From a virus, in UHGV virus genome UHGV-0138835: a stretch of 48,857 nucleotides of DNA. The stretch is one strand, 5' to 3'. The position numbers were made by a program, and so were the translations under genes. Below are positions 2,833 through 7,838 of this stretch, in pieces. Numbering within the stretch: position 1 is the stretch's first letter; the number at the start of each line of letters is the position of its first letter. The notes beneath the pieces were generated by a model. The model made no database searches and was not told the origin of the DNA. It worked only from the letters and a program-made list of their open reading frames with translations.

Positions 2833-5800
2833 ATGATTTACACAACTGGAACAATTGCCATCAACGGCAATGCTGTTACAGGCACGGGAACAAACTTTTC
2901 CGCGCCGCTTTCTCTCATTCGTGTAGGCTGCACGCTCATTGCAATCGGCAATCCGGTGCAGATCTTTACCATCACAGAAATTAAAAGCGGTACTGAACTG
3001 TCAGTGACGCCAGCAGCTAACCCTGCAATCCCTGCGGGAACAAAATTTAGTATTCTGCTATCTGACTCAATCTCAGTTGATGGTCTTGCTCAGGACGTAG
3101 CTGAAACCCTGCGTTACTACCAGGGCAAGGAAACAGAGATCGCCGCCGCTGTCGAGTGGTGGGAAGATTTTGGCGGAGAAGGTCAGTTGGATCAGCTTCT
3201 TACCAACATTCGCGCAGAAACAGCCAAATCAACCGCCAATGCTCAAAAAACAGAAACTGACAAAAACGCAGCAGAAGCGTCAAAAACAGCGGCTGCAAAA
3301 TCCGCCACGGCAGCGAAAACATCAGAAACCAACGCTAAGGCAAGTGAGACAGCAGCAAAGACAAGCGAAACCAACGCCAAAACGTCAGAGAACAGGGCGC
3401 AAGAATATCTAAATCAAATGGGAAGGCTTACCAGTCCAATGGTTCAATGTGATTGGCCCGTTACAACTGGTACGACTGACGCTTACGTTAAGATAGCTAA
3501 AGTTACCAACCCAGGTAGCAGCTCCTGCCACATGACACTAATGATCACTAATGCCGGTAACTACGGGACAAGTTACGGAAACATTGATTTTGTCGAGATC
3601 TCCGCTCGCGGTTTTCCCGATGAACTGAACGCCGATAATGTATCTAAATACTTGAGTATCCGCCGCTTAGGTTCACCAAATCTGGCAACTGATAATCAGA
3701 TGCGTTATGGGCTTGTTAAGGGCGATAACTTTTTTGAGGTCTGGTGTCGTCAGCGAGCATTTACCGGAAGCGCAAAGGTCGCTGTACTGGCGCAGACTAA
3801 TCAAAACACGGAATTATACATTCCCGAAGGATTTGTTAAACAAGACAATGCACCATCAGGATTTATTGAAAGCCCGGCAGCAAGGATTTACGACCAGGTA
3901 AACAAACCCAGCAAGGCGGATTTGGGCCTTTCTAACGCTATGCTTATAGGCGCTTTTGGTCTTGGCGGTACTGGAATAGGGTTGACTGGTTACATGACTG
4001 ATCAGGAACTACTACAAGAGCTAAGGGCTAAAGGTGGGTGTTTCTGGAGATCAGGAAAACCAACAGGTAGCACGGCGACCATTTATAGCCACGGTTCTGG
4101 TATATTCTCGCGGTGCGCCGATACGTGGTCAGCGATCAATATCGACTACTCAACCGCGAAGGTTAAGGTCTATGCCGGTAACGACAATGGACTTAACAAT
4201 AACACTTTTGCCGTTAATGAGCTATACGGAACTAAAAACAAGCCGTCGAAATCAGATGTTGGACTTGGCAACGTAACGAACGATGCGCAGGTGAAAAAAA
4301 TCGGCGATGTTATGTCTGGTGACCTGGCGATCAAAAAAGGGACACCGTCATTCTTTCTGCGGTCAGACAGTGGAACCGCCCATGTATGGTTCCAAAATGC
4401 GGATCAGACGGAACGCGGCGTTATTTTTGCGCCTACAAATTCTGAGACGCTTGGTGAAGTTCACATCAGGGCTAAAAACGCAAAAGGTGAAACAAACGGT
4501 GATCTTATTGTTCGCCACGACGGGGTGGTTGAGGTTCAGAATCTCACAGCGGCTAAAAAAGCCAAAAGCGTAACCGCAGAATTTGCAAACACAAGCACTA
4601 GCTCCGATGATACCACGGTAAATATCAAAGGATCACAGCATACGCCTTTGGTTTTAACGCGCAACAACACAATTAAAAACTTATCCATTGGGTTTAAGGT
4701 TGATGATGTTGATCAAAAATACCTGGGTATAGCTGGCGACGGTGATTTGTATTTTGGTAGTTATTCTGACCACACAAAAAACAGCAAAGTGATCACACAA
4801 GCAATACTCGATAGCGGGGTAACGGTAGGCGGTAAAACAACCTTTTCTGACCTTGCCACATTCAGTGCTGGTATATATGGGGCCATAGAACCGGAAATAA
4901 TTAACAGCAAGACTGTAGATCTTAACAACCTTGTCATTAAGTCCTCTGATAAAGGTTCAGTTAAGTATTATCAATGCACATCTTCCGGGGCTGGTAACTC
5001 CATTACCAATAAGCCTGACGGCGTAGGCGGTAACTTTTTGCTACGTGTAGAATCTATTCGTAAGGTTACGGATTCAGATTATACAAACTTGCAAACCCTG
5101 GTTGGCACAGACACGAAACAAATATACGTTCGCTATTGTGAAAATGGCAATTGGTCCGCATGGAGTCAGGTTGTTGTTTCAGGAAGGAATCAGGATGTAA
5201 ACGTAAGGTCGTTAACCACTGGTACCCCTGTAAAATCTGGTGGCGGGCAAATTGATGTACTTGGGAGTACGTCAGATTATAGCGCGATGAATTGTACTGT
5301 GCGTGGTGTTGATAGCACTGGAACCAATTCGGCGTGGTCGGTAGGTACATCAGAAAGCACAGGAAAAATGTTGTACCTGAAAAACCACAGAAGCAGCGCT
5401 CAAGTGCTGTTAAATGGCGATGACGGCGCGGTGCAACTACTAAGCGGTACCGTCAACAGTGCTACAGCACAGGCGCTAACCATCAACAAAGATGAGGTTA
5501 ACTCAACTGCCGATTTAGTAATTAGAAAACAAACAGGGACTGGCAGTCGTTTTGCTTTACAGAACGCAGGTAATGCAGAACTACCGTTTTCTGTCAGTGT
5601 GTGGGGTTCCAGTACTCGACAAAACGTTTTTGAGGTTGCAACGTCTGCTGCGTATCTGTTTTATGCGCAAAGAACGCCAGCAGGCCAGTTGTTTGATGTA
5701 AATGGCGCTATTAATTGCACAACGCTGAATCAGTCATCAGACCGCGACCTTAAAGACGATATTCTCGTTATCAGCGACGCGACGAAAGCAATCCGTAAAA

Positions 5801-6150
5801 TGAACGGATACACCTACACGCTCAGGGAAAACGGGATGCCTTATGCTGGCGTTATTGCACAGGAAGTAATGGAGGCGATACCAGAAGCTGTGGGATCGTT
5901 TACTCATTACAGTGAAGAGTTGCAGGGACCAACGGTTGACGGCAACGAGCTACGCGAAGAAACGCGTTATCTCAATGTTGACTACGCCGCAGTAACTGGC
6001 TTACTTGTCCAGGTTGCACGCGAAACGGATAACCGCGTCACCGAACTGGAAGAGGAAAATGCCAGCTTACGCGCTAACATTGCTGTAATGGATGAGCGTA
6101 TCGCAAAACTTGAAGCGCTTGTCAGTAAGTTGACCGGAAGCGAAGAATAA
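2833..6150 (+). CDS. tail fiber protein with C-terminal intramolecular chaperone (peptidase S74-like) auto-processing domain
   Basis: 1105 aa; the C-terminal ~130 aa (DLKDDILVISDATKAIRKMNGYTYTL...YLNVDYAAVTGLLVQV...EEENASLRANIAVMDERIAKLEALV) matches the recalled endosialidase/T5 L-shaped-fiber chaperone domain; SD GGAG 8 nt upstream. Confidence 0.8.
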   Translation: MIYTTGTIAINGNAVTGTGTNFSAPLSLIRVGCTLIAIGNPVQIFTITEIKSGTELSVTPAANPAIPAGTKFSILLSDSISVDGLAQDVAETLRYYQGKETEIAAAVEWWEDFGGEGQLDQLLTNIRAETAKSTANAQKTETDKNAAEASKTAAAKSATAAKTSETNAKASETAAKTSETNAKTSENRAQEYLNQMGRLTSPMVQCDWPVTTGTTDAYVKIAKVTNPGSSSCHMTLMITNAGNYGTSYGNIDFVEISARGFPDELNADNVSKYLSIRRLGSPNLATDNQMRYGLVKGDNFFEVWCRQRAFTGSAKVAVLAQTNQNTELYIPEGFVKQDNAPSGFIESPAARIYDQVNKPSKADLGLSNAMLIGAFGLGGTGIGLTGYMTDQELLQELRAKGGCFWRSGKPTGSTATIYSHGSGIFSRCADTWSAINIDYSTAKVKVYAGNDNGLNNNTFAVNELYGTKNKPSKSDVGLGNVTNDAQVKKIGDVMSGDLAIKKGTPSFFLRSDSGTAHVWFQNADQTERGVIFAPTNSETLGEVHIRAKNAKGETNGDLIVRHDGVVEVQNLTAAKKAKSVTAEFANTSTSSDDTTVNIKGSQHTPLVLTRNNTIKNLSIGFKVDDVDQKYLGIAGDGDLYFGSYSDHTKNSKVITQAILDSGVTVGGKTTFSDLATFSAGIYGAIEPEIINSKTVDLNNLVIKSSDKGSVKYYQCTSSGAGNSITNKPDGVGGNFLLRVESIRKVTDSDYTNLQTLVGTDTKQIYVRYCENGNWSAWSQVVVSGRNQDVNVRSLTTGTPVKSGGGQIDVLGSTSDYSAMNCTVRGVDSTGTNSAWSVGTSESTGKMLYLKNHRSSAQVLLNGDDGAVQLLSGTVNSATAQALTINKDEVNSTADLVIRKQTGTGSRFALQNAGNAELPFSVSVWGSSTRQNVFEVATSAAYLFYAQRTPAGQLFDVNGAINCTTLNQSSDRDLKDDILVISDATKAIRKMNGYTYTLRENGMPYAGVIAQEVMEAIPEAVGSFTHYSEELQGPTVDGNELREETRYLNVDYAAVTGLLVQVARETDNRVTELEEENASLRANIAVMDERIAKLEALVSKLTGSEE

Positions 6151-6179
6151 TGGGTGATGTGCGAAGAACATCGCCGCGC

Positions 6180-6208
6180 GAAACGAGGCTAACGCCTCGT
6201 TTCTTTTT
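6180..6208 (+). terminator. rho-independent terminator after tail-fiber gene
   Basis: gaaacgaggc-taac-gcctcgtttc hairpin followed by TTTTT. Confidence 0.65.
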
Positions 6209-6229
6209 GTGTACCAAATAGTGACCAAA
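6208..6229 (+). repeat. 22-bp perfect direct repeat, copy 1 (tgtgtaccaaatagtgaccaaa); candidate integrase arm-type site / attP-region repeat
   Basis: Exact 22-mer recurs at 6439-6460, flanking a ~210-bp AT-rich tract just upstream of int. Confidence 0.5.
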
Positions 6230-6438
6230 ATGATAAATCAAAAACAAAAACATAACATAACACATTGAATACAAATGAATTTTTCATTAAGTTATCCATT
6301 CAAAAGATAAGTAGGTAGCGCCATTTCTATCATTTCATATCGTGTCACATCGTCACCGTTTCACGTTGATTTCAAAAGAAATATTTATTCTATCGTGTCA
6401 TATCGCTCCCCATCGTGTTACTATCCATGCGTAAAATG

Positions 6439-6460
6439 TGTGTACCAAATAGTGACCAAA
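6439..6460 (+). repeat. 22-bp perfect direct repeat, copy 2; ends 2 nt before the int start codon
   Basis: Identical to 6208-6229. Confidence 0.5.
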
Positions 6461-6462
6461 TT

Positions 6463-7662
6463 ATGCTTACAGATACCAAATTACGAAACATTCACGGCAA
6501 GCCATACGACGGCCCGGAAGAAGTACCGGACGCTGGCGGATTGTCTGCCAGGATAAGCCCGCGAGGAGTTATATCTTTCCAGTATCGCTACCGATTCAAC
6601 GGCAAGCCTCGACGGATGAAGATCGGCACATACGGAGAAATAACACTCAAAGAAGCGCGCGCGGAGGTGGCGGCGCACAAAGAAGTATTAAACTCAGGTC
6701 GAGATCCATCGGTAGCAAAAAGAATGCACCTTTCTCGCGTTACGACACGGGCAACGGTTGAGGATATTGTCAGGGAGTACATGGAATCAACGCAGGCAAG
6801 GAGCATGGTCAACTATAAGCAGGTTGAAGCGATGTTGAATAAGCACGTCATCAGGCCATACGGTAGCTATATAGTCGATGATATGGACGCTATGATGTGG
6901 GAGGGAGTTTTTAGAAAGGTAGCTAATGGTGGTGCGCCAGTTCAGGCGGGAATAGTTCTCAACAGAATGAAAGCGGTAATAAAATACGCCATGCGCCGCC
7001 GCCGCGTGGATCGTGACGACATATCGTTACTACGCGTGAAAGACGTTGGTAAAAACCCAGCGCAAGGGAAGCGGGTTTTGTCAATACAAGAGATTCGCCA
7101 TCTAATCAGCCTTATAGACAGTTCAAAAATGGCGCGTCTAAATCAGATATTGATGAAACTGATTATATTCACCGGATGCAGGACAAGCGAGCTAACAAAC
7201 GCAAGGCGAGAACATTTCGATCTTGATAACTGCGTGTGGACTGTGCCTGGTGCATTGAGTAAGAACAGAAACGAGTTTAAACGCGGTTTATCCGACGTTA
7301 GCGTCGATTTATTGCGTGAGGCTATGGATCTGCATAGCTTTGATTTTGTCTTCGTTCCTGTGCTTTCTGGAAGGGATGAGGCGGTGGACAGAAGCGTACC
7401 GAAAACAGCGGCAAGGGATTTAATGATGAGGATGGGCGGCGAGCCGTGGTCGTGTCACGATCTACGCCGCACCGTGAGGACAAACCTTTCAGCGCTTGGC
7501 GTTGCGCCTCACGTCGCTGAAAAGGTTTTGGGGCATAAGCTGGCGGGGATGTTGGCTATATACGATCAGTATGACTATGTGAGGGAACAAATAGAGGCGA
7601 TGAATAAACTGGCTGATTATTACATGAAGCCCATTGATTTACAAAATGAAATAACGTCCTGA
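6463..7662 (+). CDS. int: tyrosine recombinase / phage integrase (P4-type)
   Basis: N-terminal arm-binding-like region (ARISPRGVISFQYRYRFNGKPRRMKIGTYGEITLKEARAE) and C-terminal catalytic region with HDLRRT...LGH; start taken at ATG 6463 (the track ORF begins at 6415). Confidence 0.85.
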   Translation: MLTDTKLRNIHGKPYDGPEEVPDAGGLSARISPRGVISFQYRYRFNGKPRRMKIGTYGEITLKEARAEVAAHKEVLNSGRDPSVAKRMHLSRVTTRATVEDIVREYMESTQARSMVNYKQVEAMLNKHVIRPYGSYIVDDMDAMMWEGVFRKVANGGAPVQAGIVLNRMKAVIKYAMRRRRVDRDDISLLRVKDVGKNPAQGKRVLSIQEIRHLISLIDSSKMARLNQILMKLIIFTGCRTSELTNARREHFDLDNCVWTVPGALSKNRNEFKRGLSDVSVDLLREAMDLHSFDFVFVPVLSGRDEAVDRSVPKTAARDLMMRMGGEPWSCHDLRRTVRTNLSALGVAPHVAEKVLGHKLAGMLAIYDQYDYVREQIEAMNKLADYYMKPIDLQNEITS

Positions 7663-7838
7663 TAACGGTAAAGAGAGCCGCCGTGCTTTAATGCTGGCAT
7701 TCCCTTAACAGGTTCAGGGAATGGAGTACCTGAATCCTTCCATTTTTTAACCAGTTTAAAAAAGGCGGACTTACTAAGCCCGCCCAACATTTTTTGCACT
7801 TGCTCACGATTAATAAGAATTGCGCCGATCTTATCCAT
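7620..7838 (-). CDS. excisionase / AlpA-family small DNA-binding protein (putative Xis)
   Basis: 72 aa, HTH-like, convergent with and overlapping the int 3' end; family assignment from pattern only. Confidence 0.45.
   Translation of the reverse strand: MDKIGAILINREQVQKMLGGLSKSAFFKLVKKWKDSGTPFPEPVKGMPALKHGGSLYRYQDVISFCKSMGFM

Follow-up and report, generated by a model that had tools for sequence, protein, structure and literature searches.

What does the DNA directly upstream of this phage's integrase gene do, and why does it hold two copies of the same 22-nucleotide sequence? We analyzed a 48,857-nucleotide stretch of viral DNA (UHGV virus genome UHGV-0138835; hereafter, the window). An earlier sequence-only reading had proposed that the two copies, with the AT-rich tract between them, form a phage attachment site (attP) in which integrase arm-type sites surround a core that it did not locate.

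The window belongs to an mEp021-like temperate coliphage of the mEpimmI group. Across its whole length it shares about 87 to 93% identity with phages that include mEp044, mEp010, mEp013, mEp515, mEp554, mEp021, and MagusPhagus; an identical record was absent among those searched. Three of these phages (mEp010, mEp013, and mEp044) match at 89 to 93% DNA identity over most of the window and at 94 to 95% over the int region, which places the integrase in type II. The published study of this group (PMC11893012) describes four integrase types, with types Ia and Ib inserting at ydaM/dgcM, type II at the 3' end of abgT, and type III at mppA. In the window, the tail-fibre gene, the tract between the repeats, and int are contiguous, whereas the GenBank records of mEp044, mEp010, and mEp013, which follow prophage order, begin inside the tract at window positions 6279-6280. 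The match to mEp554 stops at position 6249, about 50 nt before the end of that record. Because the prophage-order records are split within a tract that is unbroken here, the window has the non-integrated (circular or virion) arrangement, which answers the earlier question of whether it came from a virion or an integrated copy.

The tail-fibre gene on the other side of the tract (window 2833-6150) encodes 1105 amino acids, and the annotation of related E. coli prophage genes that match its 3' end reads "pyocin knob domain-containing S74 family peptidase." Its final ~160 nt (window 5900-6059) are 85 to 86% identical to lambdoid side-tail-fibre genes (mEp460, Ayreon, and PhiR70_1) and are also common to hundreds of E. 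coli prophages. Such wide sharing indicates that the 3' end is a mosaic, exchangeable module.

Crossover in the 3' end of abgT

To locate the core, we searched 5,426 complete E. coli genomes for prophage junctions. Homology on the int side started at window position 6302 in 13 prophages. In strain 2017C-4173W12, the int end of the prophage adjoins ogt and a 99-nt remnant of abgT, and the tail-fibre end lies 54.6 kb away, beside the remainder of abgT. We aligned attP from the window with attL and attR from this lysogen and with an empty attB from strain 7/2. The attB site reads ...CCACCA AAAAGATAAG TGGATAGGGC... and attP reads ...CCATTC AAAAGATAAG TAGGTAGCGC.... The block AAAAGATAAG is common to all four sites, and the flanks switch around it as expected for hybrid sites: attL joins the host left flank to the phage right flank, and attR joins the phage left flank to the host right flank. 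The same attL junction, with phage-type bases retained directly to the right of AAAAGATAAG, was found in RM9245, UMNK88, and N1286, giving four independent lysogens that support it. Since the block is shared and phage-type bases follow it directly, the crossover is confined to AAAAGATAAG. Imperfect identity between attP (TAGGTAGC) and attB (TGGATAGG) extends beyond the core to about position 6319.

The core lies 72 nt past the left repeat and 127 nt ahead of the right repeat, and the two halves of the site part company in lysogens. The P-arm island (6172-6249) was present as one copy in each of 35 of the 5,426 genomes, and the type II P' arm as one copy in each of 13. In lysogens the P arm and the type II P' arm were never adjacent and stood about 54 kb apart, with one 22-mer kept at attR (the tail-fibre end) and the other at attL (the int end). 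On the evidence of these junctions, which come from close relatives with int regions 91 to 96% identical to that of the window, we show that positions 6208-6460 correspond to attP, with the core at 6302-6311 (Table 1). With the core between the repeats, and no junction mapping elsewhere, the architecture put forward in the sequence-only reading proves correct, and the comparison with prophage genomes that it suggested supplies the core it lacked; binding of the repeats by the integrase (Int) is the predicted part of that architecture.

The match to AAAAGATAAG in abgT lies 83 nt upstream of the stop codon, and integration removes the final 27 codons, with the phage providing a TGA at the core edge. 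The gene is thus left truncated (AbgT minus 27 residues) rather than restored. We also considered a tRNA gene or tRNA fragment as the target and rejected it. ARAGORN returned no gene in the window and Rfam no match at E values up to 1 over positions 5900-6800, in agreement with the earlier remark that no tRNA-like sequence was visible, and attB sits inside the abgT open reading frame (ORF).

At mppA, a type III prophage (E. coli O157:H7 LSU61; L057 432-600 and L058 7700-8100) showed a different outcome. There, mppA is joined at attR to a new start codon (ATG) and a signal-peptide coding sequence contributed by the phage end, and the gene therefore appears to be restored, whereas type II integration truncates AbgT by 27 residues.

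Table 1. Coordinates of features at and around attP (window numbering)
Feature	Position	Strand	Basis and remarks
Intrinsic terminator of the tail-fibre gene	6180-6207	+	Scan and inverted-repeat search; strong: 10-bp stem, 4-nt loop, T-run (6180-6203 plus T-run)
P-arm 22-mer, two tandem candidate Int arm-type half-sites TGTGTACCAAA and TAGTGACCAAA	6208-6229	+	Repeat search; attR of prophages
Candidate IHF-like site ATTCAATGTGTTA	6258-6270	-	One mismatch from WATCAANNNNTTR; weak
CATTC, candidate part of a left core-type Int site	6297-6301	+	Invariant across all integrase types; abuts the crossover on the left
attP common core/crossover AAAAGATAAG	6302-6311	+	attP/attL/attR/attB alignment; identical to attB in the abgT 3' end
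Repeat cluster A	6325-6358	+	Repeat search; ATCG at 6339 and 6349 (10-bp phasing); type II-specific
Repeat cluster B	6388-6421	+	Repeat search; ATCG at 6392, 6402, and 6412; overlaps candidate int promoter
TGTTACTAT, candidate extended -10 of int promoter	6416-6424	+	TGnTA(A/C)TATCC invariant in types II, Ia, and Ib
P'-arm 22-mer, two tandem candidate Int arm-type half-sites	6439-6460	+	Repeat search; attL of prophages
int, tyrosine integrase, 399 aa, mEpimmI type II	6463-7662	+	Pfam; PHROG 1 integrase
72-aa ORF, candidate recombination directionality factor	7620-7838	-	Convergent with int; 43-nt overlap of int 3' end

The 22-nucleotide repeats across integrase types

The repeat that prompted the attP proposal, TGTGTACCAAATAGTGACCAAA, is present as two exact copies, 231 nt apart from start to start. 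They are the only matches on either strand of the 48.9 kb with up to three mismatches, and 100 dinucleotide-preserving shuffles with three mismatches permitted yielded none. All the details given for the repeats in the earlier reading held: both copies, a spacer of roughly 210 bp that measures 209 nt and is AT rich (31.6% GC versus 46.0% for the whole window), shorter motifs repeated within it (TATCGTGTCA, exact only at 6338-6347 and 6391-6400), and a right copy that ends 2 nt before the int ATG (6463). Within each 22-mer there are two tandem half-sites, GTGTACCAAA and GTGACCAAA, and the motif ACCAAA starts at 6213 and 6224 in the left copy and at 6444 and 6455 in the right copy. The AT-rich context is what might recommend a chance or low-complexity repeat in intergenic DNA, an explanation whose probability we regard as negligible given the empty shuffles and the conservation of the 22-mer in dozens of related phages and prophages. 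A scan for the 22-mer (18 specified bases) in 185,579 species-representative genomes gave nine matches, in unrelated metagenome-assembled genomes (MAGs), where about 17 would be expected by chance, and added no further host range.

If the 22-mers are read by the N-terminal domain of Int, they should persist where the core changes, and this is what we observed. The integrase carries an Arm-DNA-bind_3 domain (residues 2-87, E = 1e-19), followed by Phage_int_M (100-191) and Phage_integrase (205-371). Residues 1-60 are its best conserved part, with 70 to 73% identity between types, compared with 33 to 41% for the core-binding domain and 46 to 55% for the catalytic domain; PMC11893012 likewise reports that the N-terminal DNA-binding region is conserved and the remainder variable. 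An IMG/VR scan gave 36 loci with 11 intact attPs, which together with the window and MagusPhagus made 13 attPs of three types (II, Ia, and Ib). The IMG/VR loci were retrieved with a pattern that fixes most of the 22-mer, which inflates how invariant it appears; copies reached independently, by homology to int or to the tail-fibre gene, agree with them.

In the alignment of the 13 attPs, four blocks are invariant: the terminator with the left 22-mer, CATTC, TGnTA(A/C)TATCC, and the right 22-mer. Identity between types II and I is 99% in the left 22-mer and falls to 60% in the inner P arm, 53% in the core, 32 to 53% in the inner P' arm, and 54% in the 5' coding sequence of int. The right 22-mer, by direct count, is identical at 20 to 21 of 22 positions in types Ia and Ib, within flanking DNA that is 32 to 54% identical; an alignment-derived cross-type identity of 0.61 for this copy was a gap artefact and was discarded. 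Variation in the 22-mer is restricted to positions 12-15, the spacer between the half-sites. The pattern is illustrated by the type Ib phage mEp021, in which TGTGTACCAAATCGTGACCAAA precedes int, TGTGTACCAAATAGAGACCAAA follows the same terminator, and the DNA between these two repeats is unrelated to the tract of the window. The geometry is also constrained. The left 22-mer stands 88 to 89 nt from CATTC in 13 of 13 intact attPs, and the right 22-mer follows CATTC by 142 nt in seven of seven type II sites and by 153 nt in six of six type I sites. The P' arms of the two types thus differ by 11 nt, about one helical turn.

Type III departs from this constancy at both ends together. In the LSU61 prophage, the left copy is TGTGCACCATTATGTGTACCATA and the right copy is TGTGTACCATATTGTGCGCCAAA; ACCAAA has become ACCAT(A/T), and the half-sites are spaced by 12 rather than 11, in both arms. 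Its N-terminal domain is 70% identical to that of type II, as is the case for type I, yet the arms have diverged. Overall identity of the domain therefore does not track arm sequence.

Taken together, conservation, spacing, and concerted change make it likely that the 22-mers are the outer Int arm-type sites, each composed of two tandem 11-bp half-sites. The N-terminal Arm-DNA-binding domain of Int would bind these half-sites and the core-binding and catalytic domains would hold the core, with AT-rich DNA, probably bent by IHF, bringing arm and core sites into a lambda-type intasome. Part of the conservation of the left 22-mer could reflect hitch-hiking, since it is contiguous with a conserved terminator.

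A possible third half-site in the P' arm, GATACCAAATTA (6470-6483, plus strand; int codons 4-7), was doubtful and was set aside. Type I reads ACGAAA or ACCAGG at these codons, and because the DNA is not kept there, the match is probably a coding coincidence; it may reflect merely conserved T-K codons.

Could proteins other than Int be the readers of the 22-mers? The right copy sits between the candidate promoter and the int ATG, and the left copy abuts the terminator, positions that would suit an attP whose 22-mers are bound by an HTH protein (the recombination directionality factor, RDF), a host factor, or a transcription regulator and mainly control int expression or termination. We consider this unlikely. 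A pure int operator would have no need of a repeat that flanks the core on each side at a set spacing, and no extra copy occurs in the immunity region or the rest of the window. Moreover, types II and Ib share just 44% identity in the HTH ORF but 95% or more in the 22-mers; the type-specific inner repeats suit an HTH protein better.

Two IMG/VR contigs from metagenome 3300045988, _076816 (40.9 kb) and _064823 (51.6 kb), carry the terminator, a single 22-mer, and int. In both (L023 reverse strand, position 3148; L034, position 536), the 209 bp between the repeats, that is, the segment with the core and the candidate int promoter, is precisely absent. The cause is either an assembly shortcut or an event at the direct repeats, recombination or slippage, that produced an integration-defective phage.

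These contigs, with their recombination or assembly collapse between the copies, are compatible with a second alternative, in which the 22-mers are passive: a duplication scar, or homology boundaries for the exchange of a core/int cassette. The start of between-type divergence just inside the left 22-mer island points the same way. Still, this reading strikes us as very improbable. A neutral scar would not stay identical at 20 to 22 of 22 positions within DNA that is 32 to 54% identical, nor would it change at both ends together as in type III, and the right 22-mer is not a module boundary, because the exchanged module runs through int, well past that copy.

Keeping to the arm-site reading, we tentatively propose a broader scheme, which we hold with a little less than even confidence. 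The 22-mers and the conserved N terminus of Int would form a fixed arm scaffold of the mEpimmI group, on which the core, the inner P' arm, the core-binding and catalytic domains of Int, and the RDF are swapped as a unit. Such swaps would retarget the phage among three nearby E. coli loci (dgcM/ydaM, abgT, and mppA), with the one-helical-turn change in the P' arm keeping the arm-to-core phase, and the same repeats would now and then lead to precise deletion of the core and int promoter, giving rise to the integration-defective variants seen in gut metagenomes.

Interior of the P and P' arms

The terminator directly abuts the left 22-mer, an arrangement shared by types II, Ia, and Ib as well as by additional left-arm variants. 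It is 98 to 99% identical within and between integrase types and would protect attP from late read-through transcription. Between the left 22-mer and the core, the inner P arm (6230-6301) contains 20.8% GC and runs of A (AAAAACAAAAAC). It is 83% identical within type II and fixed in length, and this combination of variable sequence and constant length fits the role of a bendable spacer. At the candidate IHF-like site, type II relatives keep the consensus positions and vary at the N positions. The exact IHF consensus, WATCAANNNNTTR, occurs four times in the window, which is at chance level (3.05 expected), and nowhere in attP.

In the P' arm, cluster A is 94% identical within type II and 32% identical to type I, which has CCGT(T/A)CA repeats in place of the type II cluster A and B units. 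We regard cluster A as a candidate set of excisionase (RDF) sites or second-class Int sites. The P' arm would also carry the int promoter, with the candidate extended -10 at 6416-6424: the conserved TGnTAnTAT pattern is consistent with an extended -10 and would put the transcription start near 6431, GTGTCA at 6395-6400 is a possible -35, and within type II the motif varies solely at "n" (T/A/G). On this model, the int transcript would carry the right 22-mer at roughly +8 to +29. A sigma-70 consensus scan of positions 6050-6600 found its sole match inside the tail-fibre gene and none in the P' arm; TGTTACTAT was not called because it matches at 8 of 12 positions, below the threshold of 9 of 12. 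In the MagusPhagus record (PP925836.1), a 30-aa ORF is annotated within the P' arm of attP (L002 2943-3035) and is probably spurious, and the integrase (L002 3028-4263) is labelled "hypothetical protein."

Translation of int raises a separate point. The type II gene is without a recognizable Shine-Dalgarno sequence, the 22-mer ending 2 to 4 nt ahead of the ATG, whereas types Ia and Ib (L007 151-190, L015, and L038, compared with window 6439-6465) have a 12- to 16-nt spacer before int with GGGGG or AGAGG. Type II int translation may be intrinsically weak or otherwise initiated.

The candidate RDF is encoded by the 72-aa ORF that converges on int. With mEp021_02, whose Pfam matches are HTH_23 and HTH_28, it shares 44% identity, and it has a weak PHROG match to "DNA binding protein." Pfam and NCBIfam assigned it to no family, it matched no excisionase family, and a PDB sequence search gave no meaningful match. 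Its single-sequence AlphaFold model had a pLDDT of 63.7, with which Foldseek found nothing in the PDB below E = 2.7. From its position, its size, and the HTH match of the mEp021 homologue, we infer that the 72-aa protein is the RDF. We propose it as the binder of the inner repeats because the two diverge in parallel; the type-specific 10-bp-phased repeats would probably bind this small HTH protein, and Int and RDF together would lower int expression, as in KplE1 and P4. Transcripts of the early-left operon would be antisense to int over positions 7620-7662, where the gene ends.

Relation to known integration systems

In outline, the feature is an ordinary, largely anticipated lambda-style integration site. 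Integration at the 3' end of abgT is already published for phages of the same group and integrase type (mEp010, mEp013, and mEp044; PMC11893012). A search of the main text of that paper found none of "attP," "arm-type," "direct repeat," "excisionase," and "Xis," and the published description supplies insertion loci only. What we add is annotation rather than a new mechanism: the anatomy of the arm sites, the 10-bp crossover block, the geometry, and a candidate promoter. The mEpimmI coliphages, reported by their describers as prevalent in the human gut, thereby gain an annotated attP with a crossover block, candidate arm sites, candidate RDF sites, and a candidate int promoter. Our understanding of how such attachment sites work is unchanged. 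The family does offer three or four integrase specificities as a natural series, in which types I and II have near-identical arms and the arms of type III have diverged together, and this series could aid the study or engineering of core-specificity retargeting in P4-like (Arm-DNA-bind_3) integrases.

The arrangement of genes resembles that of KplE1/HK620/Sf6 and P4, in which int lies beside attP and points away from the core. In these modules, the stretch from the core to the start of int contains sites for RDF and for Int, transcription of the RDF gene is uncoupled from that of int, and the int promoter of KplE1 and P4 overlaps attL and is repressed by Int and RDF (PMC2951348). In the window, int likewise adjoins attP, with transcription running away from the core, which would place the int promoter in the P' arm (attL); here the 72-aa HTH ORF is convergent with int. 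Whereas KplE1/HK620/Sf6 and P4 integrate in tRNA genes, this phage uses the protein-coding abgT and leaves it unrestored.

The site itself resembles that of lambda: about 250 bp in length, with a short core, arm-type repeats on both sides, a separate N-terminal Int domain, P' sites in tandem next to int, and AT-rich bendable DNA between. Several details are unlike lambda. The N terminus of Int is of the Arm-DNA-bind_3 (P4-like) type, another Pfam family; int faces away from attP, whereas in lambda it follows xis; the candidate repeats for accessory proteins occupy the P' arm rather than the P arm; and there are 2 + 2 half-sites in place of the 2 + 3 arm sites of lambda (P1 and P2, and P'1 to P'3). 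Lambda and HK022 have arm sites in common and differ in core specificity. The near-identical arms and different cores of types I and II parallel that pair.
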